Part shown: positions 9,101 through 25,336 of the stretch, piece after piece
How the letters are laid out: each line of letters opens with the position of its first letter
Position numbering within the stretch: the stretch's first letter is position 1
IMG/VR virus record: IMGVR_UViG_3300032299_000826
Location: 1-29,001 of that record
Length of the DNA stretch: 29,001 bases
Source of the DNA: a virus
Taxonomy: Duplodnaviria; Caudoviricetes
Reading direction: 5' to 3' (one strand)
Notes under the pieces: model-generated
Database searches by the model: none
Seen by the model: only the letters and a program-made list of their open reading frames with translations
What the model was told of the DNA's origin: nothing
Program-made: the position numbers and the translations under genes

Positions 9101-12100
9101 ATTACTAATAGGACCAACATTTAAACCTTCATTAACTGCCGTTTGAATTTCAGTATTTGTATATCCTGTTATTAAATCTTGTCCAGCAATTAAGTAATAA
9201 ACATCGTTCATTAATTTTGGATAAAATCCAAGATTCATTATTGATATTGTATTTCCACCAACAGTATTGTTTAATTGACCAACAATATTAAAGTTTTCAT
9301 TTTTTTGATTTTTAAAATTATATTGAGTTTCTAATGAATTTGTAGTTGGATTATATAAATTAGGTGCGTTCACATTTGTCCACACAGAATCTAAAATATC
9401 CACATTTGTTTCAATATATGTTTTATATCTATGCCAAATAGAACCATATCTTAATATCCAAGAATATGGTAATCTATGAACACCACCAAATTTTGTTAGT
9501 GTTGTAAATATATAATCCAAATATGTTGTATTATTTGAATCTAATGAAAAATATCTTTCACTTACATTTGATAACGGTAATGAATTTAAGAAAAGATATG
9601 CAGATTTAATATATGGTGATGTAACACCATCACTTCTATCAGCTTGTACATCTTGTTGTAAAGCATTAATGAAGAACGGTGTGTTTAACATTGATACCGT
9701 CTGATTAAAAACAACATTTCCTGTCTTAGCACTATAATCTAAAGGACCTTCAGTTGGGAGATATAATTCTTCTACCCTTCTTGTCGCGTAAAAATTATTA
9801 AAAGTTGTTGTTACTGCAGGTGTTTGCGATGTTAAAAATGAACCATCAACAAAAGGTTTGTTTTGGTTATTATCAGTAACCCCAACTTGATAGTTTGTAA
9901 TATATTTCTTTGTAATATTAAGATATAAACTATTTTTTGTTGTATATCTGTCGGACTTAACTTGTTTAATATTCGCCAAATGTTGTTTAGACCACGTATC
10001 ACTTCTAAATGGATACACATCCATAATGTCTGTTGTTGTGGACTTTGTTGATTTAACATATTCATCAATGTTTTTTAACGATTCAACACTTTTTTCAGTT
10101 GATGTTGAGGATGCAGTTATTAAACTATCTTCTAAAATATCATAATCTTTTGTTGTAATCGTTCTCAAATATTCTGAAGTAAAAATACCTCTAATAAGTT
10201 GTTGCCAACTTGTACCAGTACCATCATTTGATATTTGTCTTAAAACACCCAAATAATTGTTTGGTGTAAAAGCAATATTTTTAAGAGTTTTAGTTAACGC
10301 AGGACTTGTTCCTGTTAAGGCTTGTCTAATATTAGTAACTTCTAAATCTGATAAAGTATTATAGACCGATAATGATGTTGCTCCCGATGTTGATATTCTA
10401 TCCCAATATGTTGCTAATAATAACCTTTCGTAAATTTCATATAAAAACTTAACGGTATCATAGTCAGTATATGGTATATTTGTTGTTGGGAATTCAACAG
10501 CGTTTACCGTGATTTTATTTACTGTACGTCCTTCGTTATTATCACCTGAAGGACCAGTGTCAGGGCTTGAACGTTGAGCTAATCCTTTCATATATTCCTC
10601 AACAAATTCAACTTCAGGCCACACATCAAAATTATTCGCCTTTGTTCTTGAAATTTCTCTTGGGTCGCCAGGGTACCTTAACTCATATTGTTCTCCCTTA
10701 TCCGAATTTGTCTGAACATAATATTGTGGCCATGGATAAACAGGAATATTACTTAAATTTGGCGTATTTGTTGTTTGTGTTAGATTTTTAGAATCTGTGG
10801 TTGTATTTGATTTATCATCACCATAAACCGCAGCCTTTCTATATGGGTGTAATCTTTTTGACCAAGCATCAGAATGAACATCATCCATCAATCTATAAAA
10901 CGCTTCAATAGATGCGAATATCATAGCCATGATATTTCTCATAGTTGGTTTAAATCCTAAACCATTTGGACCTTCAATTTTTTTGGCTAAAAAAGCTGTA
11001 AGAGCCGTAACAATTTTTTCTTTTTGTTTTGATATCTCATCAAAAGTTTTTGATATTACATCCAAAAAATTACCAGGTCCTTCAAACACAAAGTTAAATG
11101 TTGGTTGGAATATTTGTTGATTTGGACCTTGTGTTTCTAATGGAGTAAAAAATAATATTGATTGTGTTTTTAAAATTTCTTCTTCACCATTTCTTGGTTC
11201 TCTATTAGTTCTTGCGACAAACGTTTCGTACCAATTAATATCATCTATAGAAATTGACTTTCTAAACGTATCTTCGCTAACATACAATGTTGTTGAAGGG
11301 GATACTTTGATGTTTTTTACAACATTTATTTGTGAACCTTGTTTAACACCATCAATTGTAAAACTACCATTATCACCTAAAGTTTTATTTTTTGATAATT
11401 GAATTTCATACTCAGTAACAAGTTGTCTTAACTCATTATAAGCATTAATTCTTTTTTGACCATCGTCCCTTGTTTCTTTATTATAAATCCAAGTTTTAAC
11501 ACCTGTTTGATTATTAGCCTTTGTTGACTTTAAAACAAATGGTAAACTAACATCAATATATTTTTTAAACCAACTATCCTCAACGGGTGATGAAATATCA
11601 TCACTAAATTTGGTTACTAATTTAAAATATGTGTCAACATCAGATAGTGGTGTAAAATCCGCTTGACCAAAACTTTCAATCAAAAACTTTTCAAGCCCTT
11701 CTAATCTTGCTCTTAATTCAGGAAACGAAAGTTCAGGTAATGTTGGTGAAATTAATTGGTCCGCTTTATATCTGGCATAAACTTCTTTAATTTTTTGATA
11801 ACCTCTTGTTGTTCTTACGTTTGAAGTAACGGTTGTCGCATTTTGTTGACCACCACTATTACCAATTACAACAGAATTTTGTGCCGCGTTTAAAGCTCCC
11901 GTTTGTGGCGCTGTTGCATTTATTTTAAAATCAGATGTATACATAAATGGAACCGCAAATAATGCACCCACTTGTGTTTCGGCCAATACTGTATATTTGT
12001 AAGAATAAAAATTAAGATTAATTCTATAGTTTCCAGTATTACCATCAAAAGCCGCTGAAAATTTTGTAAGAATTAATTGATATCTAATTGCTTTACCGTA

Positions 12101-12697
12101 ATAACCTTTTAACGTTAAATAAAATGTTGGGTATGGTAAGTTAAAAAATGCCGCATATTCAGAATTTTCACCTTTTTCAAATAACGCTCTTCCTTGTGTA
12201 TCAATCAATGTCATTTCAACACTTGGTGTTGCGCTTCTATTATTTTTAACTCTAATAGATTCAATACCCAATAATCCAGTGTCTTGTGAATTTATTGTAT
12301 TTTGTTTAAGATAAAACTCATCAGTTTTATTTTGTTGGCTAACATTTGTAATACTTGGTTGATTGGTTCCTTTTCCATTACTTGTATTTAAACCTGTAAT
12401 TTCATCAAGATAAGCATTTGTAAGTAATGTTTTACCACCAGGTCTTAAAAAATTCATAGATGCGATTGGTACATTTTGAATAGCGTCTGATATTGGTGCA
12501 CCAACAGCAAGTTTTGTTCTTGGAAAAACATTTGTCGCTTCCAAGTTTGCGTACATAACTAAATTTTCATGATGAATTTGTCTTTCTCGGGCAACACCAT
12601 TTAAATCAACGGTCTTGTTTGGGTCAACTAAAAAAACATTTTGATAATCAAAGTCTACGAATATGTTATCACCACCATTTATATTGTTATCTGCCAT
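6188..12697 (-). CDS. Giant baseplate hub-like protein (gp27 / Mu gp44 / P2 gpD-like ends with very large insertions)
   Basis: N-terminal LGIESIRV...PSVEMTLID...PYPTFYLTLKGYYG and C-terminal CRVESMGNAMIQP...GPYMIQSVEHSIDAGQFRTFFTG resemble hub beta-barrel halves. Follows the LysM-like wedge gene as in contractile tail operons. Confidence 0.6.
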   Translation of the reverse strand: MADNNINGGDNIFVDFDYQNVFLVDPNKTVDLNGVARERQIHHENLVMYANLEATNVFPRTKLAVGAPISDAIQNVPIASMNFLRPGGKTLLTNAYLDEITGLNTSNGKGTNQPSITNVSQQNKTDEFYLKQNTINSQDTGLLGIESIRVKNNRSATPSVEMTLIDTQGRALFEKGENSEYAAFFNLPYPTFYLTLKGYYGKAIRYQLILTKFSAAFDGNTGNYRINLNFYSYKYTVLAETQVGALFAVPFMYTSDFKINATAPQTGALNAAQNSVVIGNSGGQQNATTVTSNVRTTRGYQKIKEVYARYKADQLISPTLPELSFPELRARLEGLEKFLIESFGQADFTPLSDVDTYFKLVTKFSDDISSPVEDSWFKKYIDVSLPFVLKSTKANNQTGVKTWIYNKETRDDGQKRINAYNELRQLVTEYEIQLSKNKTLGDNGSFTIDGVKQGSQINVVKNIKVSPSTTLYVSEDTFRKSISIDDINWYETFVARTNREPRNGEEEILKTQSILFFTPLETQGPNQQIFQPTFNFVFEGPGNFLDVISKTFDEISKQKEKIVTALTAFLAKKIEGPNGLGFKPTMRNIMAMIFASIEAFYRLMDDVHSDAWSKRLHPYRKAAVYGDDKSNTTTDSKNLTQTTNTPNLSNIPVYPWPQYYVQTNSDKGEQYELRYPGDPREISRTKANNFDVWPEVEFVEEYMKGLAQRSSPDTGPSGDNNEGRTVNKITVNAVEFPTTNIPYTDYDTVKFLYEIYERLLLATYWDRISTSGATSLSVYNTLSDLEVTNIRQALTGTSPALTKTLKNIAFTPNNYLGVLRQISNDGTGTSWQQLIRGIFTSEYLRTITTKDYDILEDSLITASSTSTEKSVESLKNIDEYVKSTKSTTTDIMDVYPFRSDTWSKQHLANIKQVKSDRYTTKNSLYLNITKKYITNYQVGVTDNNQNKPFVDGSFLTSQTPAVTTTFNNFYATRRVEELYLPTEGPLDYSAKTGNVVFNQTVSMLNTPFFINALQQDVQADRSDGVTSPYIKSAYLFLNSLPLSNVSERYFSLDSNNTTYLDYIFTTLTKFGGVHRLPYSWILRYGSIWHRYKTYIETNVDILDSVWTNVNAPNLYNPTTNSLETQYNFKNQKNENFNIVGQLNNTVGGNTISIMNLGFYPKLMNDVYYLIAGQDLITGYTNTEIQTAVNEGLNVGPISNSAISLQNGFDPNNPNRSLNMNVWFSSFDTKNSTKFKTYQQQKTILIPSFSTNYNQISSECFTQSTTGNTLTLTQEVFNNSAVYNGSARTFWTAPNYGYFELQSITKPNYNEYFKQIFTGDSKQNAVKFGQTYTKIEDIFGTFKKDILDSFENEFLNFTKSYNDLSAEQISGSTFVNRNFQSIMGEMLTIQYVDNTQSYDNYVTTCNNLQRTKISETINSFMNYNIAFKYGNPSNFDRKLFGSFTTLPEFKVVDPYTYKPYVQNTLPTDAGTLTLSQSVSLNPDAWKAMYTNVGFATQSGMIYSNNGSYYTDFFPTMNVEFTQANVVNFAPLIKIFGTQKLLNESSTTIYSRGNFTTSINEYYQNKNIFLNNTLTQLFSTLQKELPNVEQTNEKPILSAVDGVQTKIEFWETFKAFNDKWIAGGEYKDRTLFQDVLFLDRANRDIGDAVYVDIFKLKDFFSGTTSLNTRCIDFISRIIADNQFQMMPMPAYINFWGVGNVKQGETPNAEPTNDMANSLFGTFLDVDYRYASPKFVCYYAGKPSEHLDMRENPEYRWKTDAFDFAPARMPLIDKLQGKKDWAQSNRVVAFNVDFGTRNQSMFYSIQLDQNSAAATTEGNRVITDAANQAGGTRSNTQNVSLYNLYKTRSYECRVESMGNAMIQPTMYFNLRYVPMFRGPYMIQSVEHSIDAGQFRTFFTGIRMPLYSLPLIEQQIMTLNTSLLAELVQEVRRLKETATTTVQPAVNVITIGNSVQTNGKFTVSAPVECLKDIQDANVKYQKYTGVESTIQRLSYGDMATLLKENVSSIPTRAMIFYTSYLNGHDDNNFISFNFDLGGTPLGGLPSPQISYGGRETFFTKTFGCKTNKAGATQPVAVFTSFENSINFMENYYFNKQAGASKSLINIGTNKWVTKDDYVLSMVSTWLGWWPTKRFNSFQEEQTFYAKNTNVLPDLKKAAYEVVELMIKFNLVSF

Positions 12698-13007
12698 AAT
12701 AGAAGAAATAATTTTCTATACCATTTTTATAATCTTGTAATGAAGATATAAGTGGATATGGTATAGTCAATAAAGAATTGTTAGGTATATTCCATTCTAA
12801 CCCACCATACTCAGGATTGGCTTGCAAAATTAACCACCCAAAAAATGGTGTTCCATAAAATTGTTGGGATACCTTATCTAATCTACTATATCCAGTTCTG
12901 TAGATATATCTTTGGTCTGAAGTTTTACTTGGTAGTGGTACAAATGGAACTACGGTTTGTTCACCATTAATAAAAAATTGTTGGTATCGGTTATAATATG
13001 CATCCAT
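12687..13007 (-). CDS. LysM-like baseplate wedge protein (gp53 / P2 gpX-like)
   Basis: RLDKVSQQFYGTPFFGWLILQANP...IPNNSLLTIP pattern. TAATG stop/start coupling with the upstream gene. Confidence 0.75.
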   Translation of the reverse strand: MDAYYNRYQQFFINGEQTVVPFVPLPSKTSDQRYIYRTGYSRLDKVSQQFYGTPFFGWLILQANPEYGGLEWNIPNNSLLTIPYPLISSLQDYKNGIENYFFYYGR

Positions 13008-16000
13008 TAGTTAAATTTTCGTTTAAAGTTGTATGGGTTAAACTTACTATTATTATTCTTATTAGAATAGATAGTTTGAAGTGTTTTTTTATTGATTTCA
13101 GGTGCTGTTAAATCTTCAGCAAATACGGTAATTCTTTTTTGTGTTGACCCAAATGGTGGTGTATATTTAATATAGTTTTTAGCAACATCACCTGATTTAT
13201 AAATAGCCAATAAATCTGAACCAGCCTTATTGGCGTACGTCCATTGGAATCTTAATGAAGTACCACTAGTGTCGTAATAAAATAAAATAGCATTTGTTGT
13301 TGCTTGGTCTAAACCTTCCACCAAAGCTTTTAGGAATCCGTCTTTTAAATCTTTTTGTAATAAAGCTCTACTCATCAAGGTATATTCTCTTATTTTATAT
13401 TCGTTAGGATTTTGATAACCAAAATAATCAAATCCTTCTGTTGGTAATGTCCATGTTCCCGGTACTTTTGGTTTGTAACCATCAGTATTATATAGTTGAG
13501 CGTCTGTCAAACCTGATAAGAAAATATTATTACTATTTCCTATAGTAATATAATCATTTCTTAAAGATGTTAAACTATCAATTGTAGTTCCATTAATATC
13601 TTCAGGTGTTCCACTTATAGAATATAAAATTGAAATATTTTTTTGGTTTAATTTACCATCATATCCTGTCGTTGTTCCTGATGCAACAAAATTTAATCTA
13701 TCAATATTAAACACATAATTTTGTTGTGATTCAACTAATGTTGATAATGGCTCAGTTAAAGAATTTAAGAATGTTGTTTGATATGTTTTAACATAATTTG
13801 TATAATTCTTTTTAAACAATCTTTTTTGAGCATTTGTTATAATTGGGTTTGAAAATTCATAACTTGAGAAAATTATTAAGTCTTCACCATCAATGTCTTT
13901 TAATAATTCTTTAAACGCATCATCAACATATGTTTGTGTTTTTGCCGGTTTACCATATAAATTTACAGTTAAATTTGTAGACGAATTAAAACTACCTGTA
14001 TTATATGTTTGATTATTATCACCATAATTTAACATAGACAACACACCATAGTTATAGTTTGTTAAAACACTATCAAACATATTTAAAACACCATTATAAT
14101 ATGATTGAGTTTGTTCAACCATTTTATTCATAAATGGTGCATATGTTAAAGTACCTGTTTGACCACTTGCTGTTGTTCCAGTTGCCGTAAACACACCAAT
14201 TGTATTACCACCGTCTGTAGATATTTGAGTATCAACATTGGCAACACCTACAACAGGTTGTTGTTCTCTAATTGAATTAATAACTTGTTTATCAAGTTTA
14301 CTTGTATCTTCAGTAGCTTCAGCTCTTTCATCATACATTTCAGTATTTGCATAGTAATTGAATGATAATGCGTTCTGTAATGTATCAACAGGATTTGCAA
14401 GCCCTGAACCACCAACAAAGTTGAATCCCATATTAACCTCTACAATCATTGGTTGAAAACCAATACCTTCAGGATTAAAATCAAATGTTTGATATGTAAA
14501 ACCTAAACTTGTTGGAATTATCTTTGTATTGTAAAAATCACCAACACGTAAAACCAATACTGGTGGCGCCCCAAATGATGTGTTTAAAGCGTCATTATAT
14601 AGTTTATCACCATTGGGTCCAATTGTTGGGATTGTTTCACCAGGTCTCATACATTGTTGTAAGAAAGTTAAACGTGAGTTTAATCCTTCAGGTGTTGTTG
14701 AGTGAAACGCTGGTTGGAAATATTTTATTTTTTCTTTTATTGAATCATAAATGAATGGGTTTTCAGCCTTTAACACTTCAAAATAATCACACTCATTTAA
14801 AAGGTATCTTAATAATTTTTTAGATGCCCCTTTAAATAAAATCTCATCAGGTTGTGGTGAAACAACATTTGTTTGTGCCGGTTTTTTTGGTTCTTGATTA
14901 TTTCCTGTAGCCGCAATTGCTTCTTGTGATTCAGTATTGTTTGGTGCTGGTTGTGGTGCTGGTTGTTGAACAGTAATGTCTGATATAATAACTGCCCTAC
15001 AAGCCATGGCATTTGTTGAATAAATTTTATTGTTTCCTTTTAAATCTTGGTTACAATCAACAGAGCCAAACGCACTTGAGTTTCCTTTTGGATTTGCAAT
15101 TACAATATTTTCACCAACAGGTAATCCGTTTAATACCAATGAGTTACCAATAAATTCATTAACTGATTTTCCACCAGCAAATGTGTATGTTTTAAAGAAA
15201 TTTTCAACGGAACTTATTCTTCTTTGGGATAGTTTATTGTTATACTCTTCGGTGTTTGGTGATGATGCACTTCCTCGTAAAGTAAGGATAATTTTTTCAG
15301 CTTGTTTTTGACTCAATAAATCATAAATCTTTTCTACCAAAGTCTTCATTTGGGTATAGTTTTCATCAACAATATTTGTAAAGAAAGTTGATACTGTAGC
15401 CGCACTTGGCGCGTTTTGACTATATTTTGTTTTATTAGCCGATGATGTATAAACATCATATGTTGATTGATATGGTATTTCAGTTGTTGTGTTAGGATTT
15501 TGTTTTGGAATGTCATTGTCAAAATAAAATCCATATTCTTTATAACTTGACAATGTCTCCGTTACTGTCGCTTGTTGAGCAATTCCTACCTCTGTGGAAG
15601 TATTTTGAAAAACACTCTCAATATTTTCATTTGTCGCTTGTGGATTATTTGCAACTTCTTGCCAAGCTTGTAATTCTGTTAAGGGAATTGTATTGTATAT
15701 TTTTGCAAGTTCATATAAATCATATTTTTTACAACCAGCAAAGAATGAATCAACAATTGAATCAACTTTTTGTCTATCACCCTCATTGGCCAATACCTTA
15801 TTAACAATAACATTTAAAATTGATGGATGGTCAACAACCATCTTCCATTTCAATGTACCACTACGAGAAGTGTTTTTATAGGTATATACAGGTTCGGGTC
15901 TACCCAAGAATGTAGTTTCATTAAATGATGGTCTTGTATCCTCAGTAAATGATAAATCATATGGGGGGAACCACATAACTCTACCACCATTTGGTCCTTG

Positions 16001-17866
16001 TTCACAAACGGGTAAATCACTAACTCTATAACCAGGTCTATGTCCTGTTCTCCAAGCCAAGTTCTCAACTGAGAACATATATTTTTTTACCTTACCATTA
16101 ACAATACTATCACCACCTTTTTCAGGTGCAATGTTTAAGTTAAACGTTGAGTCAACAATAGAATATGAAAACTTACGAATATTTCCGTCTTTTTTCTGTA
16201 AACTATTAAAAGTATAATATGGTGTATCTTTTGTAAAAACACGACAATACTCAATACCCACGTTAGATTGTCCATCAGAATATCTGATAACTTGTGAACC
16301 TTTTGTTATTTCTTTATACCCGTCAAAGAATACTTTAGATGTTTGACTAATAGCATTACCTACGTGTCCAAATCTAGCACCTGAGTTTGGTTGTGAATCA
16401 ATTAATCTTTGAGTGTTGTCTAAAATTGAACCCGGTTTAAAGTCATAGTTTATTGACTCTGTTGCCGTTAATTGATTTGAAATTGATGCAAATGCTGGGT
16501 CTTCACCAGCGTAATCACCACCAGGTTTTTGATATTTACCAGCATTTGGTGCCCATTTACCACTAATCCATGTAAATCCACCGACAATACTACCATCATT
16601 TTCAAATGGTCTTCCCGCCAAACCAAATTTAAAGTCTTTATCTACTCCTTCATATTCTTTTCCTAATATATCAGGACCATAAACAGGCGCGTTAACTTGA
16701 CCACCAAAACTATCAATGGGTATTTGACCAGGTGGTGATGTTATATATCCCGGCTCTCTTTGTGGACTACCAACATAATATGTTCCCTCACTTGCGTTGT
16801 TTGCAAATGCTCCTGTAATGGCTTGACCTAAAGCGGATAAAATGCCCGTACCACCTGTGTTATATTGTGGACGGTATCTATTTGTAGATAAATTTTGAGT
16901 TAACTGGCCTCTTTGTCCTGAGCCAGTGTAGTCCAAAAACACTTGTGATGGTGATGTTGGTCTTGACCCAAATAATCCAAATAATCCACCACGTCTTCCG
17001 TTACCAGCGGCAGCTGCGGCTGAAGTTGCGGTACCAAAATCTCTTGCTTGATAATAACTACCTGGAATTGGTGAGAATGGAAATTGTACACCAGTTATTC
17101 TTTGGACAATGTCCATACCCTGTGATAGTAAATTACCACCTGATGTAATAGTCCAATCGGCAACAATTATAGGTCTTTTTCCCGCAATAACTTGTGATAA
17201 GTTAAATGGGTCAGAAAGACCTGATAAAATATTAACCCTACCTATTGTAGCGGCCCTTACATTTTGGTCAACTCTATATTGAAAAGATTGTTTTGCACCT
17301 TTGACACCTAATTTAGCGAGTTCCGAGTCATCACTAACAGGGCCATTATCACCTACGGGGTCTTCTTGTAATAAAACTGAAAATGGTGAATAAGATGATG
17401 GTCTAAAACTTGGTGGTCCCCAATATGTTGCGTTTTTTTGTACTTTAACAATATCACCTATTTCATAATAGGAGTATTGTCCTCCTGGCGAGTACACATT
17501 TTTAATGTATTGTCTCTTTTGAAATGATTCTGAATATACCTGTAATGCGTTGGTATATGGTGGAGTTGCACCATATGGACCTTGATTTGATGTTATTTGT
17601 AGAGTATTAATTAAACCATTAATATCTTTATTAAAACCACCTAAAGGTCCAAATACATTGTTAACATAAAGTTTGTCGGCAAATGGGTCGGAATCAATTA
17701 ATGCATCTGGTGAATCAATTACAGAATAATCATTTTGAACTAGTTCTCCTGAAGCAGGTTTTGAGGTTGAAGTGTAAACACCAGGTTTGTTATATGGAGT
17801 TAAGTTTCTTGTTAGTAACTTATCTCTTAATAATTTTGTCGCACTAAAAGTTAATTGACTTGGCAT
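13007..17866 (-). CDS. Giant baseplate / tube-initiator-like protein (gp48/gp54-like) with an internal OmpA-like domain
   Basis: FPPYDLSFTE...FLGRPEPVYTYKNTSRSGTLKW and PPVLVLRVGDFY...PMIVEVNMGFNFVGG tube-like halves flank FYFDND...GSASS...YNNKLSQRRISSV...GE...CRAV. Located directly after the tape measure gene. Confidence 0.65.
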   Translation of the reverse strand: MPSQLTFSATKLLRDKLLTRNLTPYNKPGVYTSTSKPASGELVQNDYSVIDSPDALIDSDPFADKLYVNNVFGPLGGFNKDINGLINTLQITSNQGPYGATPPYTNALQVYSESFQKRQYIKNVYSPGGQYSYYEIGDIVKVQKNATYWGPPSFRPSSYSPFSVLLQEDPVGDNGPVSDDSELAKLGVKGAKQSFQYRVDQNVRAATIGRVNILSGLSDPFNLSQVIAGKRPIIVADWTITSGGNLLSQGMDIVQRITGVQFPFSPIPGSYYQARDFGTATSAAAAAGNGRRGGLFGLFGSRPTSPSQVFLDYTGSGQRGQLTQNLSTNRYRPQYNTGGTGILSALGQAITGAFANNASEGTYYVGSPQREPGYITSPPGQIPIDSFGGQVNAPVYGPDILGKEYEGVDKDFKFGLAGRPFENDGSIVGGFTWISGKWAPNAGKYQKPGGDYAGEDPAFASISNQLTATESINYDFKPGSILDNTQRLIDSQPNSGARFGHVGNAISQTSKVFFDGYKEITKGSQVIRYSDGQSNVGIEYCRVFTKDTPYYTFNSLQKKDGNIRKFSYSIVDSTFNLNIAPEKGGDSIVNGKVKKYMFSVENLAWRTGHRPGYRVSDLPVCEQGPNGGRVMWFPPYDLSFTEDTRPSFNETTFLGRPEPVYTYKNTSRSGTLKWKMVVDHPSILNVIVNKVLANEGDRQKVDSIVDSFFAGCKKYDLYELAKIYNTIPLTELQAWQEVANNPQATNENIESVFQNTSTEVGIAQQATVTETLSSYKEYGFYFDNDIPKQNPNTTTEIPYQSTYDVYTSSANKTKYSQNAPSAATVSTFFTNIVDENYTQMKTLVEKIYDLLSQKQAEKIILTLRGSASSPNTEEYNNKLSQRRISSVENFFKTYTFAGGKSVNEFIGNSLVLNGLPVGENIVIANPKGNSSAFGSVDCNQDLKGNNKIYSTNAMACRAVIISDITVQQPAPQPAPNNTESQEAIAATGNNQEPKKPAQTNVVSPQPDEILFKGASKKLLRYLLNECDYFEVLKAENPFIYDSIKEKIKYFQPAFHSTTPEGLNSRLTFLQQCMRPGETIPTIGPNGDKLYNDALNTSFGAPPVLVLRVGDFYNTKIIPTSLGFTYQTFDFNPEGIGFQPMIVEVNMGFNFVGGSGLANPVDTLQNALSFNYYANTEMYDERAEATEDTSKLDKQVINSIREQQPVVGVANVDTQISTDGGNTIGVFTATGTTASGQTGTLTYAPFMNKMVEQTQSYYNGVLNMFDSVLTNYNYGVLSMLNYGDNNQTYNTGSFNSSTNLTVNLYGKPAKTQTYVDDAFKELLKDIDGEDLIIFSSYEFSNPIITNAQKRLFKKNYTNYVKTYQTTFLNSLTEPLSTLVESQQNYVFNIDRLNFVASGTTTGYDGKLNQKNISILYSISGTPEDINGTTIDSLTSLRNDYITIGNSNNIFLSGLTDAQLYNTDGYKPKVPGTWTLPTEGFDYFGYQNPNEYKIREYTLMSRALLQKDLKDGFLKALVEGLDQATTNAILFYYDTSGTSLRFQWTYANKAGSDLLAIYKSGDVAKNYIKYTPPFGSTQKRITVFAEDLTAPEINKKTLQTIYSNKNNNSKFNPYNFKRKFN

Positions 17867-17908: not shown

Positions 17909-19759
17909 TTAAATCTTATTTGGAACTGCACCGTAATTTGTATTCATTTGAGATTCAGAAATGATTCTTGTAAGTTCTTTTCTAAAACCATCATTTTTAA
18001 ATATTTCACCAATTTGTGAGTCAGTTAAAGATTGTGTTGTTCCATTCGGTGTTGTTACTTTAATATCTATAGTACCTTTATGTTCCAAAGGATTAAACTC
18101 AATCTTTTGATTAGTTTGTGTAATATTACCAGTTTCAATTGCTGTTTTTTTAGTAACATCAGTTCCTGATAAAAATGATTTTGCCTTATCAGCTAAAGTA
18201 GTTAATCCTGTTACAGCAGCACCCGCAGCTTCGGCAATTTTATTTCCTGATGTAATATATGGTTTAGACGCTTCAGTATCAAAATTACTAAAGGCCTTTG
18301 TAATATTCTTTAATCCCTCCCCCATATCCATTCCCGCAGTTTTAAACACATTTGCAACTTCTTCTAAACCACCTTTTCCTGAAATTAAATCTGTTAAACC
18401 TTTACCTGTTTTTTCATAAAGTTGGTCAATACCCTCAATACCACCACGTGTATTACCAACAGCTCTTTGTGCTGTTGATTGTCCTGATGCTAAAGTACCC
18501 CTTAATAATTCTCTTAAATCCTGTGGAGCTCTTGACCCAGCAACAGGTGCTGCAAGTCCATCTCTAATCTGTCCTAATACAGCATTTGAATATTCTGTTT
18601 CGGTAAGTTGACTCTTAGCCAAATCTTCTAATGTTACAGGTTTTTGTGATTCTTTTAATTCATCAATATCTTTACTATTAATTTCAGTAACAAGTTTTTC
18701 ATCTCTACCAATTTTAACAGTAAATCCACCTTTTTGTTTGTTGTATTGAGCGACATTGGCAACAAATTGTTTTGTTTCTTCATCAACACCGGCAATTTTT
18801 AAATCTTTAGATATCAAATTTAATTTTTGAGTACCTTCAGACATTTTAATCAAATCATTGTAGGCGATACCTGTGGCTTTTTCAATTTCTCTCAAATCAC
18901 GTTTAGCATTTGGGAAAACTTTAAACTCTTTTGTCTTCTCATCAAAATATGTAAACTTTTGAGTCATTTTTACAACTTGATTCTGAAGTTCTTCAGTATC
19001 TTCAGACGCCAAATACATTAATCTAAATGGGTCGGCTAGGTCACCAGCGGCAACACCCATTCTTTGAAACGCCGCTACGGTATCAATCGCACCTTCGGGG
19101 TCAAATACTTTTTCAGCAAAATCAAATATTGAATTCATATTAATACGTAATCCCGCCGCTTGAGCTGACATCTTAGCCAATCCCGCAACACCATTTTCAA
19201 AACCATATTTATTAATTGAGTCTAAGTTATTACTAACCAACTTAAACACCGCACCCGTATTAACGCCAACTTGTCGTGCTAAATTAACGGTTGTTTGAAT
19301 ATTATCTTTAATGTTTCCAGTTTGAATTCCAACATCTTGGAATGCGGCAACCATTTCACCAACACCATCCGAAGATACTCCAACTGCTTTTCCCGCAGCG
19401 TATAAATCAGTTACGGTCTCACCTAATGTAATAACATTAGTTTTAAGAGATTCTGCAATACCTTTTTGAATCTCAGCAACATCCTCAAAAGCACCACCCA
19501 ATCCAACAACACCAGGTGTAGCAACAGCGAGTTCTTCTCTTAACCCTTTAATCGCCGATTGGGTTTGCCCAAATGTACCCGCTATTTTAGCTGTAAATGT
19601 CGCGTATTGACTATCTAATTCATCAGTTCTTTTTGACCAAGTTGTATAAACCTCATCAACGATGGTACCTAGTTTTTTAACAATATCCCCAACAGAATTA
19701 ATACCTGAAGTATTTGGTGGATTTGGTGGATTTGGTGGATTCGGTGGAACTGCTTGCAT
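17909..19759 (-). CDS. Tape measure protein (gp29-like)
   Basis: 616 aa, Ala/Gly/Lys-rich, helical character. Canonical position after tube and chaperone and before baseplate genes. Confidence 0.75.
   Translation of the reverse strand: MQAVPPNPPNPPNPPNTSGINSVGDIVKKLGTIVDEVYTTWSKRTDELDSQYATFTAKIAGTFGQTQSAIKGLREELAVATPGVVGLGGAFEDVAEIQKGIAESLKTNVITLGETVTDLYAAGKAVGVSSDGVGEMVAAFQDVGIQTGNIKDNIQTTVNLARQVGVNTGAVFKLVSNNLDSINKYGFENGVAGLAKMSAQAAGLRINMNSIFDFAEKVFDPEGAIDTVAAFQRMGVAAGDLADPFRLMYLASEDTEELQNQVVKMTQKFTYFDEKTKEFKVFPNAKRDLREIEKATGIAYNDLIKMSEGTQKLNLISKDLKIAGVDEETKQFVANVAQYNKQKGGFTVKIGRDEKLVTEINSKDIDELKESQKPVTLEDLAKSQLTETEYSNAVLGQIRDGLAAPVAGSRAPQDLRELLRGTLASGQSTAQRAVGNTRGGIEGIDQLYEKTGKGLTDLISGKGGLEEVANVFKTAGMDMGEGLKNITKAFSNFDTEASKPYITSGNKIAEAAGAAVTGLTTLADKAKSFLSGTDVTKKTAIETGNITQTNQKIEFNPLEHKGTIDIKVTTPNGTTQSLTDSQIGEIFKNDGFRKELTRIISESQMNTNYGAVPNKI
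19712..19747 (-). repeat. 9-bp tandem repeat x4 encoding (PPN)4
   Basis: ATTTGGTGG x3 plus ATTCGGTGG on + strand. Confidence 0.9.
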
Positions 19760-19778: not shown

Positions 19779-19934
19779 TTAGGTATTTTTTATTCCCTCA
19801 ATTATTTTATCTATCAAATACCTACGAGCATATGTAGGCATTCTCATAAAATCAGTCCAAGATGTGTGTAAATTTTTTGATAAAACGAAATATTCGTCTA
19901 ACTGATAGGAGGCGTAATCAGAAGAAAACGCGAA
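19779..19934 (-). CDS. Hidden gp51-like coding frame, probably a frameshift extension of the upstream chaperone
   Basis: The +1 frame relative to 19918..20667 reads F-AFSSDYASYQLDEYFVLSKNLHTSWTDFMRMPTYARRYLIDKIIEGIKNT*. It fills the whole gap to the tape measure gene, and the helix + MP-x-x-x-R motif resembles T4 gp51-type proteins. The first ATG lies about 30 codons in. Confidence 0.7.
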   Translation of the reverse strand, partial: FAFSSDYASYQLDEYFVLSKNLHTSWTDFMRMPTYARRYLIDKIIEGIKNT

Positions 19935-20667
19935 AAAACTCAACCCCAAAGGCGATTTCTACATCTACCTTGTTTCCTGACGGGGCTAAAATTGTTCTTC
20001 TTAAATCCAATCGTGGTTCATTCTCATCAATAAAATTTCTGATGAATTTTGAATCCATTATGGGTAATCCTTCTACAAATCTATTAATAGTACCTTGCTC
20101 ACTATCACCTTCAACACTAATAATTTGTTTTTGAAGCTTCCAAGTTACTTTTGGTGCCACTCTTCCTGCAGGATATTGGTCAGCCAATCTGTTAATCTCA
20201 CCAATTTCTTTAAAAGTTAAAGGTCTTACCTTAACAGTTGCGTTTGATTTCGGTAATTTGATTGTAAAACTACCATCTTCATTTGGTTCTTGTGATGGTT
20301 TTCTAAAATCCAACTCATCCAACAAAATTTCAGTTGAAAATCTTTTTCCTGTCTCAGGGTCATTACTTGAAATTTTATACTCGGGACCAAATGATGTATT
20401 TCTTAAAAATATCAAAATGGCTTCAATATCACCATTTAACATCTCATCAGGTTTCAAATCTGGTTCATATAACTTAGAACGTACCAATGTCATAACCAAA
20501 TCATCGGGGTTAACCGACATAATTACATTCTCATCAGCGGCCGTTAAATAACCCACCTTGACAGATTTTTTCTTTGATTTATAAAACTTACCTTCTGAAG
20601 GTAGTTTTACCACATCGTGTGGTAAGTTAAAGTCTTGTTGACCATATTTTGATATATTTTCGTCCAT
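19918..20667 (-). CDS. gp26-like baseplate hub / tail assembly chaperone
   Basis: Duplicated LPS/LPKS...V...LT motif, D...IL..LR..SFG, C-terminal F-G-x-E-F-F. Located between tube and tape measure genes. Confidence 0.75.
   Translation of the reverse strand: MDENISKYGQQDFNLPHDVVKLPSEGKFYKSKKKSVKVGYLTAADENVIMSVNPDDLVMTLVRSKLYEPDLKPDEMLNGDIEAILIFLRNTSFGPEYKISSNDPETGKRFSTEILLDELDFRKPSQEPNEDGSFTIKLPKSNATVKVRPLTFKEIGEINRLADQYPAGRVAPKVTWKLQKQIISVEGDSEQGTINRFVEGLPIMDSKFIRNFIDENEPRLDLRRTILAPSGNKVDVEIAFGVEFFRVFF
19930..19941 (-). other. Candidate programmed ribosomal frameshift site GAG-UUU-UUU-CGC
   Basis: T6 run at 19938-19933 followed by CGC. tRNA-Phe can re-pair UUU to UUC in the +1 frame, a few codons before the frame-0 TGA. 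Confidence 0.55.
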
Positions 20668-20745: not shown

Positions 20746-21234
20746 TTAGTAAACCAAAATACAACGGTCCATTTGCATGGTAACGTCCAATCCTGCTAAT
20801 TTGTCATCACTGTATGATACGTTATCCCAAGCGGATTTTGTAATCATACATCCCTCAAGTATCCATTTTTCCACAACAACACCTGTTGGGTCTAACATCT
20901 CAAGGTCAACATTCTTTTTATAACCCGCAGCATATCCCATACGACCTGTAACTGATTCAGCATGTAAACGAACCCACTCCATAAGAGCTTGTGTTGCTGA
21001 TGGACCAATCGGGTCACGGAATTTAACTGAGATTGGATTCCATTTGAACCTACCTGCAACATATGTAGAAGTGTTCAAAAATTGTATCTCAACAGGGTTA
21101 ATATCAATACTTGGTCTTCCTGATGATTCAACGAACCACTCATTAATACCTAAACTTGTGTCAAACCTAAGTATAAATCGGTTCGCTCTTTTTGGTTCGT
21201 AAGGAACCGGCATTTTCATTAATAAATCAGCCAT
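20746..21234 (-). CDS. Tail tube protein (gp19-like)
   Basis: YEPKRANRF, YVAGRFKWNPISVKFRDP, YKKNVDLEMLDPTG..VEKW.LEG motifs. 162 aa. Confidence 0.9.
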   Translation of the reverse strand: MADLLMKMPVPYEPKRANRFILRFDTSLGINEWFVESSGRPSIDINPVEIQFLNTSTYVAGRFKWNPISVKFRDPIGPSATQALMEWVRLHAESVTGRMGYAAGYKKNVDLEMLDPTGVVVEKWILEGCMITKSAWDNVSYSDDKLAGLDVTMQMDRCILVY

Positions 21235-21336: not shown

Positions 21337-22173
21337 TTAGTATCTAGTTTTAGTTCCTCCAGCAGTAGAATAAGTTTTTAGAACTGGTTCATCTTTAAAA
21401 CTCTTCTTCATTACTTCTACATTCTTTAAGTCATCATCTGAAAAACCAATACTAGGAATAAAATTATTATTTACATCATCTTTAACATATAATTTTTTAC
21501 CCAGTTCTTTTGCCTGTCCTTTTACATATGAAATAAATTCTTTCATTGCTTGAACTTTTAATTCCTCGGGGTTGGCGGCTCCTACTTCTGTACCAAAACT
21601 AACGGGATAATATTTGTTCATATCCATATAGTCTCTTATTAATTCCATATCTGATTTGTCTTCCATACCCGAAAAGTCACGGAATTTTCTAAGATTCTTA
21701 ATTAATAAATTTTTATTAATACCCATATGGTCAGAAATAATAAGATTATAAATTGCATCTTTAATTGTCTCGGGGTTGTGTCCACGTGCTGTGATTATTG
21801 AAAAAATTGACCCGTTGTTGATTGCTTCCACAAAATCGGACCAAGCGGGACCTGGTTTACCTTTCATAGCGTCAATTTTAAATTGTTTATCACCACCCGT
21901 TCTAAAATTACGAAAAGGTTCGTCAGAATACCCAACTATTTTACTACCTTTATAATCAAACGGTTTTACACCAATTTCACTTCTATATTCGGCAAAATCT
22001 TCTGTAGACATACCAACCTCATTATTATTTTCATCTTTAAGAATAATTTTTGTCGGCATCATCATAATATTATCATCCCAATCAAAGGCATAATATTTCA
22101 TGTCAGGCGTACCAACATCATCAAAACCTTCACGTAATGATGATGTTGGATTTAGTATTTTTTTTCTAATCAT
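21337..22173 (-). CDS. HAD-superfamily phosphatase-like protein
   Basis: Motif I YAFDWDDNI, motif II IITARGH, motif IV IGFSDDDLKNV. Confidence 0.75.
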   Translation of the reverse strand: MIRKKILNPTSSLREGFDDVGTPDMKYYAFDWDDNIMMMPTKIILKDENNNEVGMSTEDFAEYRSEIGVKPFDYKGSKIVGYSDEPFRNFRTGGDKQFKIDAMKGKPGPAWSDFVEAINNGSIFSIITARGHNPETIKDAIYNLIISDHMGINKNLLIKNLRKFRDFSGMEDKSDMELIRDYMDMNKYYPVSFGTEVGAANPEELKVQAMKEFISYVKGQAKELGKKLYVKDDVNNNFIPSIGFSDDDLKNVEVMKKSFKDEPVLKTYSTAGGTKTRY

Positions 22174-22180
22174 TTAAAGA

Positions 22181-25100
22181 TTAAATATTTTCAAATGATG
22201 CTCCTGTTGGAGTTATCAAGAATTCAATGTCAATGAATTCCAACGCTTTAGTTGGTTTTAAGTAAATTTTACCTGTCATAGTATTTCTATCTAAATCTTC
22301 AGGTGAATTACTTACCGTAACACGGAAATCATATAAACCTCTGTCTCTTCTGATTGCATCCAAGATAGGGTTAACCGAATCCAAGAAATCTTGTCTTACT
22401 TTAGCATCGTTTTGTTCAAACAATAATCTTACTGCCACCGCTGATATTAACTTACGAGCTTGTAATAACAATCTCCTTACGTTAATTCTGTTAAGTGCTG
22501 TGTCAGCAATTTGTAATGTTTTATTACCCCAAATTACAGTTCCAACATCGGAGAATGTTGCAATAGGATTAATTCTACCTTGATACAAAGTATCTCTATC
22601 TTCTTGTGTAAGTTTCTTACGAGCTTTAATAGCGTTCACCAAACCTCTTGTGTAACCCGCAGTTGCGAACCAAGGGAATGATACGTTATCAGTTAAAGCT
22701 AAGTTTCTACAAACTTCATTTGTTGGTGGTATGTAGATTTGTGTATTGTTAACAGTATCTCTAACCAAAATCCAAGGGTAGTAAGTTGCTGTATAGTTAG
22801 AATCTATATTAGTGTTTGCTAAATTATCAACCGCTCCTGTTGGATAAATAAAGTTATCGGTGTTTGTTGGAATAAATAAGTTACAATCAGGTGTAGTACA
22901 AATGTAGATTGAATCTGCTCTATTAAATGTTACCATAGATATTGAATCCTCAACTAAATTTGAGTTATTTACATAATCAATTCCTGGTGTTGCGAATACA
23001 TTTATATTAACCGCTTCAGGATTTGAGAATGTGTTTATACCTAACAAGTATGCATAATAATCAGTGTTTGCAAAATCTGTAAAGTCACCAATAGTGATTG
23101 GTTTAAACGCTCCCCAACCTGATGCGTTTGGATATCTTGTTGTTGCACAAGCTCCTTTTTGATAACCAGTACCACCTAAGATAAACGAGTCACCATTTGT
23201 TCTATATTCACGATAGATATCCCAACCATCAAAACCATTTTGAACCAAGAAAGAGAATTTTCTTGCTTGAATTTGGTAGTAAGGGTTTGCTGAGGTTTCA
23301 GGGTCAGATTGGAACGACGCATCACCACAATCAAATGCTGTTTGTCCTGATTGAGGACCATAAGCGATTGTTACAACAGTTGCTCCTGAATCCATATGAA
23401 AACCTTTTGTTATATAACCCCAAGGTTCACCAACATTTGCTTCATCACAATAGTTGTTTGATGCCTGTCTTCCATTATATTCAAAGAACGCTGGGTCATA
23501 TCCAATTTGTGAAGATATTCCCAAATAAGAGGTTCTTACTTTATCACCAGGACTTACCATAGGATTATCAAGACCCGCTGTAGTTCCAAATGGTGGATTG
23601 TATATTACCTCACCAGGGAAGTTGTATTGTGTTTTATAAATTGGGAATGGAGGTGTTGCAGAACCATATTGTCTAGTAATATAACCTTCAAATCCACAAG
23701 GAACAGATTCTATGTTAGCATCAGGATTAATTTCTAACATAATATATTTTGAATTTAATGCGTATTCACCATCACTTGTACCAATCTTAACAGCCACATA
23801 ACTATTTGAACCTGGGTCCATAGTACAGTTTGTGTATTTTTCTAAAATTACTGGGTTTGTGTCAGTATCATAAAAACTACGAACCGCTAAATCAAAACTT
23901 AAATTAGCGAATGAAATATTAGATATTGATATTTTAATTTGTGTGTTTGCACTATCACCATCAGCCACCGAATAAATTTTAAATAACTTATCAACTGTAC
24001 TACCGAATAATTGAGAAACAGCCCAAGGTGATTCAGGTGATTGATATCTTTGAAGATAGTTTGCAATAGTACCTGTTGAATTAGCGTATCTAACACCAGG
24101 AAGTGCAACCAATTGAGAGTTAAGACCTCTTATGTATCCTTTATTGTAAGCGTAATTTAACAAGTTAGGAAAAGTTTCTTCAACAAATAATGGAACCTCA
24201 ACTCTAGATTTACCAAAGTTAGATAAACCAAATACCTTAGTAATATAATTTGCTGATGTTGTACTCAAAGATGATGCGAATGAGAACGCATCTCCCGCAG
24301 TAGTTAACCCTGAAATTGCAAATTCTGTAAATGGATTCTGCGATATTGATGAATAACTTCCTGAATTATCAATAATAACACTAGTTAAACCTGATACTGT
24401 ATAAACAGGACCATTACTTCCAACACCATATGTTGAAATACCTCTTGAGCGTAAAGTAGCAGCAATTAAGTTATTATAATCTGTGTAAGCGGTACCTGTA
24501 TAGTTATAAACAGTTCCAGAAACAGTACCCGAATAAACACCACCACCCAAACTAGTCATACTTGATATTACATTATAGAATGAATATCCTGTATAAGCAT
24601 TTCCTGAAGAAATGTCAAAGTTTGCGTAATACCAAGTATCATTAATACTTGAAGTAAAATCAGCATTTGATGTTGTTACACCCGAAACACCATAAACGTT
24701 AGTTGATGCAGTATATGCTGACAAACTTGGTGATGCTCCTGATGGAATAGTACCAAAATAACCTATTGTAAAACCTGAACCAACACCAGCAGCGTTGATT
24801 ATTGGTGATATTAGTGAATCCAAATCATCTTGTATTGTTGAAATACTACCATCAAATTGTGTGTATTGTGTATCAAGATTAATAGTTGCTGGAAATGAAC
24901 CAAACGTCACACTTGTTGAACCTGTGGAACCTGTAAATCCAACATTATATGTTGATGAAGTTCCATTTAATCCAACTGTTGTTGAGTTAACATTGGCGAT
25001 TGTTGTTATTGACCATGACGGTCCCGCATCATACCCTGACAATCCCAATACTCTTGTTACGAATAATTGGTTAGACTGTTGAAGGTAGGATTTGGCGATG

Positions 25101-25336
25101 TACGCCAATTCATATTTAGGAATTTGTGTGTTTACAAATTTTTCTGGGACTGTACCCCCGAAATAAGACTCAAAGTCTGAGTAGTTTGTGATGAAAATGG
25201 GTTCAAAAGCTGGACCCATTAATGTCTCACCAACAAGACCAAGTGTGGTTACCCCAACACTTTGTGCTACAAAACTAAGGTCTCTTTCAGATGTGTATAC
25301 ACCGGGAGAAACGAAAACTTTATTTGATACTGCCAT
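22181..25336 (-). CDS. Tail sheath protein (gp18-like), enlarged
   Basis: SPGVYTSERDLS N-terminus, PWFATAGYTRG, RINPIATF...WGNKTLQ...LNRINVRRLL, LFEQND, PTKALEFIDIEF C-terminus. Confidence 0.95.
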   Translation of the reverse strand: MAVSNKVFVSPGVYTSERDLSFVAQSVGVTTLGLVGETLMGPAFEPIFITNYSDFESYFGGTVPEKFVNTQIPKYELAYIAKSYLQQSNQLFVTRVLGLSGYDAGPSWSITTIANVNSTTVGLNGTSSTYNVGFTGSTGSTSVTFGSFPATINLDTQYTQFDGSISTIQDDLDSLISPIINAAGVGSGFTIGYFGTIPSGASPSLSAYTASTNVYGVSGVTTSNADFTSSINDTWYYANFDISSGNAYTGYSFYNVISSMTSLGGGVYSGTVSGTVYNYTGTAYTDYNNLIAATLRSRGISTYGVGSNGPVYTVSGLTSVIIDNSGSYSSISQNPFTEFAISGLTTAGDAFSFASSLSTTSANYITKVFGLSNFGKSRVEVPLFVEETFPNLLNYAYNKGYIRGLNSQLVALPGVRYANSTGTIANYLQRYQSPESPWAVSQLFGSTVDKLFKIYSVADGDSANTQIKISISNISFANLSFDLAVRSFYDTDTNPVILEKYTNCTMDPGSNSYVAVKIGTSDGEYALNSKYIMLEINPDANIESVPCGFEGYITRQYGSATPPFPIYKTQYNFPGEVIYNPPFGTTAGLDNPMVSPGDKVRTSYLGISSQIGYDPAFFEYNGRQASNNYCDEANVGEPWGYITKGFHMDSGATVVTIAYGPQSGQTAFDCGDASFQSDPETSANPYYQIQARKFSFLVQNGFDGWDIYREYRTNGDSFILGGTGYQKGACATTRYPNASGWGAFKPITIGDFTDFANTDYYAYLLGINTFSNPEAVNINVFATPGIDYVNNSNLVEDSISMVTFNRADSIYICTTPDCNLFIPTNTDNFIYPTGAVDNLANTNIDSNYTATYYPWILVRDTVNNTQIYIPPTNEVCRNLALTDNVSFPWFATAGYTRGLVNAIKARKKLTQEDRDTLYQGRINPIATFSDVGTVIWGNKTLQIADTALNRINVRRLLLQARKLISAVAVRLLFEQNDAKVRQDFLDSVNPILDAIRRDRGLYDFRVTVSNSPEDLDRNTMTGKIYLKPTKALEFIDIEFLITPTGASFENI

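Follow-up and report, generated by a model that had tools for sequence, protein, structure and literature searches.

A probable +1 ribosomal frameshift in a gp26-family tail assembly chaperone gene, preceded by a conserved predicted RNA stem-loop

How is a 50-codon reading frame translated when it overlaps the end of a tail assembly chaperone (TAC) gene and has no conserved start codon of its own? This question is raised by a 29,001-nucleotide (nt) stretch of DNA from a large freshwater phage (Duplodnaviria; Caudoviricetes; positions 1–29,001 of IMG/VR record IMGVR_UViG_3300032299_000826), hereafter the window, to which all coordinates refer. On its minus strand, which carries the entire region from chaperone to tape measure gene, a gp26-family gene ends in GGG GTT GAG TTT TTT CGC GTT TTC TTC TGA, and the +1 frame is without a stop from 19958 to a TAA at 19781–19779. 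A slip at the second TTT (Phe245, 19935–19933) would add 50 extra sense codons and give a protein of 295 amino acids (aa), with the TAA 19 nt ahead of the next ATG (19759); the first ATG of the extension frame is its codon 29, and in-frame TTGs lie at 19949 and 19943. A first-pass annotation had listed these features without stating the strand, and all of its numbers check. Based on the comparisons described here, it is likely that a minority of ribosomes slip +1 at UUU-UUU-CGN and produce the 295-aa long form alongside a 249-aa short chaperone, probably helped by a predicted stem-loop upstream of the site.

The overlap of the gp26-family gene with a conserved +1 frame is confirmed by related loci. 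Two viral scans, using peptide patterns that excluded the junction, yielded 143 loci, or 144 with the window (window clade; six incomplete, 84 distinct junctions), and a second subclade, ~40% identical to the window, comprised 160 loci (nine incomplete, 115 distinct junctions); these junctions are mutually related and do not represent independent events. In all, ~3200 matching stretches are estimated for the viral collection. An in-frame TTT-CGN at a constant +1 offset, as had been predicted, is conserved at the nucleotide level in all 84 window-clade and all 115 second-subclade junctions, and TTT-TTT is present in 83 of the former. Beyond the stop codon of the first gene, the +1 frame remains open for 42–57 codons in 84/84 window-clade junctions (one locus, L006, has lost ~70 nt inside the extension frame, which could be an assembly artefact), and it is the longest frame in 114/115 of the second subclade. 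Among 54 window-clade representatives (<85% identical), a stop occurs within 35 codons in none for the +1 frame, in 53 for frame 0, and in all 54 for the +2 frame. Entropy by +1 codon position in these relatives (0.98/0.86/1.45) places the variation at +1 third positions. As is typical of G/GT genes, the second frame codes from the slip site and has no conserved start: +1-frame protein conservation in the 84 junctions sets in at the T run, ~30 codons ahead of the most frequent ATG, in agreement with the first-pass annotation.

The usual -1 heptamer of G/GT genes (X_XXY_YYZ) is not found at this site, given that the T it requires before TTT-TTT is absent from 54/54 window-clade and 104/104 second-subclade segments. 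At the Asp codon preceding the site, the +1 groups show GAC-TTT 20 times, GAT-TTC twice, and GAT-TTT never, compared to 76% GAT elsewhere, and this sequence pattern indicates that the -1 heptamer is avoided. What is found is the UUU_CGN (UUU_Ynn) type of +1 site, with an in-frame UUU followed by a pyrimidine and conserved as nucleotides. In-frame TTT-CGN occurs at only two places in the 18 window genes, the shift site being one. CGC accounts for 4 of 8772 codons in these genes (1.3% of Arg codons; 1.6% for CGC and CGG together), and CGG or CGC occupies the A site in 70/84 junctions, although these two codons make up ~1% of the Arg codons of those genes. No CCG tRNA was found in the five stretches scanned. 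In the proposed mechanism, peptidyl-tRNA-Phe(GAA) on the second UUU would re-pair with UUC, so that a wobble pair is replaced by a Watson-Crick one, during a pause in which the A site holds CGN, a codon that may be decoded slowly. Judged from these sequence comparisons, a +1 ribosomal slip is very probable.

The direction of the shift differs among relatives. A +1 offset with in-frame UUU-Y is present at all 41 distinct immuto-like junctions and in eight named records (immuto, SP-15, LIS04, GXN1, LR756508, Mel-JY01, HSE3, and RM378), and a -1 offset occurs at the same Phe-Phe position in eight named records (P-SSM4, RaK2, PA5oct, Xoo-sp13, SCTP-2, Atu_ph07, RsoM2USA, and LR756511). Cyanophage-like loci (80 in total, two incomplete) have T-TTT-TTC and a -1 frame in 73 of 74 distinct junctions. 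The sole exception, L256, carries an in-frame gp26–gp51 fusion in which the T run is shortened; this could be an assembly artefact. Cyanophages and jumbo phages of proteobacteria have the -1 form of the Phe-Phe site, and several phages of Bacteroidota and Bacillota have the +1 form. Cultured +1 phages include immuto, grown on Flavobacterium LMO8, and SP-15, grown on Bacillus subtilis. The two directions were clustered in a quick tree, with at least a few switches, and the deep forks were not settled by this tree. Five small hypothetical genes in GenBank (KNV73_gp038, SP15_046, WWT39326.1, HSE3_gp075, and Rm378p030; loci L064, L065, L151, L152, and L153) correspond to +1 extension frames after a gp26-like gene.

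Codon usage upstream of the site, where a single frame is coding, points to a second element that was absent from the first-pass annotation. Among 87 amino-acid-conserved columns, near-fixed unusual codons are concentrated in the last 21 codons of the gp26-family gene (TCA: 0.91 vs. 0.41; GGA: 1.0 vs. 0.33; GGG: 0.98 vs. 0.15), and by this measure its 3' end is under RNA-level constraint. The 57 nt that would sit behind the ribosome were folded for each representative. An identical outer stem (P1, 19986–19981 paired with 19948–19943) was predicted in 53/54 individual folds, and an inner stem (P2) in most. In an alignment of 70 sequences, 90.7% of cells pair, with two-sided changes at 6 of 12 pairs, including G-C/A-U/C-G swaps in P2 (pair 33-51 in 14/70 rows; pair 34-50 in 14/70). 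The GGG codon of the 3' arm is found in 83/84 window-clade and 104/104 second-subclade sequences (8% background), and the C-arm codon (Ala/Thr/Ser) ends in CC in 187/188 junctions (7–15% background). The only sequence without GGGG, L101, has two P1 pairs changed on both sides. In the second subclade, which was unused in deriving the structure, the four central P1 pairs are retained in 103–104 of 104 segments, with the P2 register moved by 1–2 nt. Compared to synonymous resampling of 41 sequences, the mean fold z-score is -2.25 (25/41 below -2), and those at nine other places range from -0.63 to +0.17; the same approach gave no stem signal in the -1 cyanophage group (z +0.14). The stem ends 4 nt before the E-site codon, within the ~5 nt expected of upstream hairpins. 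It would refold behind the ribosome and, in a manner similar to a helix between Shine-Dalgarno (SD) and anti-SD sequences, favor +1 and block -1 movement. We consider it fairly probable that this predicted stem-loop stimulates the slip.

No published report or Rfam family with this stem-loop was found by a literature search that left out most subscription papers. In LR756508 (L067) and HSE3 (L152), a 7–8 bp hairpin that ends 2–3 nt before the Phe codons has a long SD-like tract immediately on its 5' side, and in LIS04 (L066) GGAG directly precedes the shift site; these elements may represent variants of one signal.

Between the 5' arm of P1 and P2 lies a bulge that contains AGGA or GGAG in 69/70 window-clade and 104/104 second-subclade segments. 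In six relatives the AGGA has moved by 2 nt yet is kept at the cost of a Gly-to-Lys change; therefore, the bulge is apparently read as RNA sequence. Pairing of the bulge with sequence 3' of the site was also considered, and this candidate failed. Using a 7-nt anti-SD core, we computed anti-SD pairing along the gene and found the strongest peaks at -45 to -39 (the bulge, the stronger of the two) and -15 to -9 in both subclades, at -36 to -30 in the immuto-like group, and at -21 to -15 in the -1 cyanophages. An SD-like tract is present near the site in every group; that of the -1 group is free and nearby, and that of the window clade is more distant and linked to the stem. The leaders of the 18 window genes are A/T-rich and show almost no anti-SD pairing (16/18 weaker than -3 kcal/mol).

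The likely host bears on how such a tract could be read. Ribosomal protein bS21 is encoded in three of the four related records searched (288–322 kb for the relatives carrying it; 256–322 kb for the relatives as a whole, among them G001, G002, and G004), and because relatives encode bS21 the host is probably a member of Bacteroidota, as judged from these sequences. One relative falls in a Flavobacteriaceae bin. In one relative's locus, the bS21 gene is in the opposite orientation to its neighbors. Between 7 and 29 tRNA matches were obtained per relative; two tRNA-Phe(GAA) are among these, as is a tRNA-Gly(ACC) call in G001 that is unusual. Bacteroidia are described as sequestering the anti-SD, with prfB shifting at ~7% without it and more when bS21 is mutated (PMC10798248). 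Accordingly, an SD-mimicking helix becomes attractive in the likely hosts of these phages. The bulged AGGA(G) would be read by its sequence, most simply by the 16S anti-SD, although we hold this to be somewhat less than an even chance. A more elaborate version, which would amount to a new class of natural +1 signal, is unlikely: the refolding stem-loop would carry the bulged SD across 40 nt to the paused ribosome's anti-SD, and phage bS21 would set the frequency and hence the short:long ratio in SD-blind Bacteroidota hosts.

Several observations weigh against a stem-assisted +1 slip of this kind. P1 barely varies and the stem overlies a protein beta-hairpin. None of 500 shuffles reached the covariation of the 70-sequence alignment, but this shuffle control ignores kinship. 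The fold z-score of the immuto-like group, which also shifts +1, is only -1.2. In E. coli lysate, the +1 effect of an upstream hairpin is described only in the absence of RF2 (PMC6321510), and anti-SD sequestration makes pairing of the bulge with 16S RNA less likely. Finally, two of the three relatives scanned encode tRNA-Arg(ACG), so that a rare CGN codon need not be starved; the pause at a rare CGC proposed in the first-pass annotation thus holds for the rarity of the codon and less well for its slow decoding.

The same evidence was used to weigh explanations that accept the +1 slip and differ on the stem-loop. The GGGG preceding the site, previously suggested to be a prfB-like internal SD, could act in this way, with the stem being secondary or merely masking it. 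The near-fixed GGG codon, the anti-SD peak at -15 to -9, and the GGAG right before the site in LIS04 all suit this idea, but the spacing to the P-site codon is 8 nt rather than the 3 nt of prfB, and both the equally conserved CCCC with which GGGG pairs in the covarying stem and the double change in L101 would be left unexplained. Because the likely hosts sequester the anti-SD, and given the weak pairing of most window leaders, we regard this role of GGGG as improbable and largely replaced by pairing within the stem. A comparably small chance is assigned to a different function of the stem-loop, which might bind a protein through its GGA bulge (a CsrA-like protein or the chaperone itself) or regulate either cleavage of the mRNA or transcription reaching into the tape measure gene. 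CsrA prefers GGA, which is found in every bulge, and the hairpin with its U run looks terminator-like. However, a terminator scan did not call the stem-loop and U run as a terminator, two RNA-library contigs cross the stem-loop, and its fixed distance to the site, its absence in -1 relatives, and the SD-like peaks in all four groups tie it to the shift.

Alternatives to the +1 slip fare less well. Hairpin-assisted slippage of RNA polymerase on the T run, by which some transcripts would lack one U or gain two, is suggested by the T6 run 4 nt behind the hairpin, and contigs drop rare variants, so that minority indels would stay hidden in them. On the other hand, the T's invariably form in-frame Phe codons, and TTC-TTT variants, which hold just 3–4 T yet keep UUU-Y, weaken this explanation: the run is only three T in TTC-TTT-CGN (1/84 window-clade junctions; 4/104 unique second-subclade segments), GXN1, and HSE3, and four T in TTC-TTT-TGG (10/35 immuto-like segments). 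We therefore rate polymerase slippage as highly improbable. The same variants give tRNA-Phe no -2 codon and so weaken a -2 slip on the U6 run with one extra Phe, an option raised earlier: the geometry allows it in the window, where the tRNA on the second UUU could re-pair two bases upstream, but it is impossible for tRNA-Phe in the TTC-TTT variants, in immuto (TTT-CTT-T), and in LR756508 (TTT-CTA), leaving it a very slim chance.

Equally little probability remains for the extension being a separate small gene translated from TTG 19949/19943, from the internal ATG, or by reinitiation. A TTG at -5 is shared by 51/84 junctions and an ATG at +31 by 57/84, and small hypothetical genes are annotated at such places in GenBank. 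However, in 10/84 junctions a +1-frame stop follows both TTG positions and precedes the site by two codons, 13/84 have no ATG, GTG, or TTG up to codon +8, and the conserved residues start well ahead of the ATG. An assembly error or decayed fused gene, of which the in-frame fusion in L256 might be an example, is practically negligible, given the same offset in 84, 115, and 41 distinct junctions and in cultured phages, and the absence of indels in DNA contigs (runs X1, X5, and X9) and two RNA-library contigs (X16 and X18; such libraries may contain DNA) that span the T run.

A +1 ribosomal slip at the Phe-Phe site is also consistent with the surrounding gene order (Table 1), which is of the G/GT type: a tube gene is followed by two overlapping frames and then by a tape measure gene assigned by position. 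The 616-aa gene gave no phage sequence match, and a domain search returned nothing above the cut-off; the gene at this position is annotated as tape measure in immuto, SP-15, LIS04, and HSE3, and we consider a tape measure the probable product on positional grounds.

Table 1 Features of the chaperone locus and of the predicted stem-loop in window coordinates.
Feature	Position	Strand	Basis
gp26-family gene, short tail assembly chaperone (TAC-N), 249 aa	19918–20667	-	PF12322 T4_baseplate E 9e-9, above cut-off; phrog_150 E 1e-13
+1 frame, putative C-terminal extension (TAC-C), 50 codons post-slip, then TAA	19779–19934	-	Frame and conservation analyses
Candidate shift site, TTT TTT CGC	19930–19938	-	Predicted E-site 19938–19936, P-site 19935–19933, A-site 19932–19930
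Conserved predicted RNA stem-loop, core (window's own fold 19989–19940)	19943–19986	-	-17.4 kcal/mol, z -2.7
P1 outer stem, 5' arm, RCCCCN	19981–19986	-	Codon conservation
Bulge, 9 nt, SD-like AGGA(G)	19972–19980	-	Motif conservation
P2 inner stem and loop	19949–19971	-	Compensatory swaps
P1 outer stem, 3' arm, YGGGGY (GGGG of the first-pass annotation)	19943–19948	-	Codon conservation
Probable tape measure gene, 616 aa	17909–19759	-	Position only
Tail tube gene, upstream	20746–21234	-	phrog_4542 E 9e-28
Sheath gene, upstream of tube	22181–25336	-	

Some further features of the region were observed. A terminator-like hairpin with a T run (20697–20668, minus strand) immediately precedes the gp26 start codon, and a terminator is annotated in SP-15 at the corresponding position. 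At 20667, contigs from four DNA runs have one additional A/T compared to the window, outside the coding frame. The N-terminal part of the probable tape measure contains a Pro-Asn-Pro repeat of 9-nt units (19712–19750, minus strand), of which one unit is absent in contigs of three runs. Between the sheath and tube genes, a 278-aa gene (21337–22173, minus strand) has no family match; the DWDD and FSDDD motifs in its product may point to a HAD phosphatase. After the probable tape measure gene, two very large genes (13007–17866 and 6188–12697, minus strand; 1619 and 2169 aa) have no family match except for a weak one to OmpA, below the cut-off.

The two predicted products were compared to known proteins. 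The short form (predicted model with a predicted local distance difference test [pLDDT] score of 88) shows weak Foldseek likeness to the HK97 chaperone 2OB9 (prob 0.75, E 0.58), and the extension is predicted to form three helices (pLDDT 86). Direct links between the extension and gp51 are weak (prob 3) or absent, and no PHROG family was matched by more than one of 57 extension members. A chain of profiles leads from the window clade to the immuto-like group (prob 98), from there to cyanophage gp51 (prob 91, E 1e-6), and from cyanophage to T4 gp51 (E 4e-4). Homology of the extension to gp51, as had been proposed, is therefore partly supported, through intermediate profiles only. The two products may act on the tape measure and tube in the same manner as lambda gpG and gpGT.

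The short/long logic of the first-pass annotation is supported by these results, although its G/GT interpretation of gp26/gp51 was already in print and the +1 shift is less new than was held. For T4, PMC3004832 lists gp26 and gp51 among hub assembly chaperones, and gp26/gp51 of T4-like phages were published as TAC-N/TAC-NC by Vladimirov, Gautam, and Davidson (2022, Virology 566:9; as cited in PMC10885494, PMC12846349, and PMC12859696). PMC12846349 refers to that work for -1 signals of the poly-T type in the TAC-N genes of T4-like phages. The window shares with these phages the PF12322 family, a short gp51-like frame behind it, and a T run ending the first gene, of which P-SSM4 and its relatives carry the -1 form; unlike them, the window clade shifts +1, avoids the -1 heptamer, and has a conserved 5' stem-loop. 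A review describes the -1 shift of lambda gpG/gpGT and, as the one +1 precedent cited for such chaperones, a likely shift in the archaeal myovirus HSTV-2 (PMC5009743). In both, one gene between tube and tape measure gives a short and a long chaperone, as here, whereas the window has another protein family, a bacterial host, a sense-codon UUU-CGN site, and a structured 5' element.

Sites of the same kind are known from other systems. According to the same review, UUU_Ynn is +1-prone in bacteria (YopN-TyeA) and UCC_UUU_CGU is used in influenza PA-X and amalgaviruses (PMC5009743). These sites share re-pairing of a P-site UUU to UUY with CGN in the A site. PA-X has no evident stimulator in that account (PMC5009743), in contrast to the window clade with its UUY E-site codon and 5' stem-loop. 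Stable hairpins a few nt 5' of the E site are described as stimulating +1 and damping -1 shifting in yeast and E. coli lysate (PMC3639245, PMC6321510). In the lysate, an upstream hairpin gave ~60% of SD-driven +1 shifting and damped -1 (Huang 2018, PMC6321510), and the effect of a hairpin on -1 was halved when spacing increased from 2 to 5 nt (Cho 2013, PMC3639245). Those hairpins were engineered or transplanted at Ty1-type or prfB sites; that of the window would be natural and conserved, with an SD-like bulge. The prfB site also combines a +1 slip in the P site with an upstream purine tract that is SD-like, and it is kept in SD-blind Bacteroidia (PMC10798248), but in the window the A site is CGN in all junctions with no stop codon, the GGGG is 8 nt off and predicted to be paired, and the exposed SD-like tract is ~40 nt upstream. 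Freshwater Bacteroidetes phages with bS21 and SD-less leaders (Chen 2022, PMC9723584) resemble the window's relatives, which carry bS21; the word 'frameshift' appears nowhere in the main text of that paper. The bS21 gene of such phages is expected near head genes, a region outside the window, which is a 29-kb fragment where no bS21 was found, no search for it having been made.

If the proposed stem-assisted +1 slip is correct, a homologous Phe-Phe site serves for -1 shifting in some gp26 lineages and for +1 shifting in others, and the 5' signal changes with direction: a free SD ~15–20 nt upstream in -1 cyanophages and a bulged-SD stem-loop in the +1 clade. This would be a natural, covarying case of a hairpin replacing the SD helix in +1 shifting, which we found described only with engineered or transplanted hairpins. 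For annotation, small 'hypothetical' genes before the tape measure gene in immuto, SP-15, HSE3, and Mel-JY01, and after the gp26-like gene in RM378, would be corrected to chaperone extensions. The locus would also offer a handle on the possible use of the hidden anti-SD by Bacteroidota ribosomes in elongation, and on the role of phage bS21.
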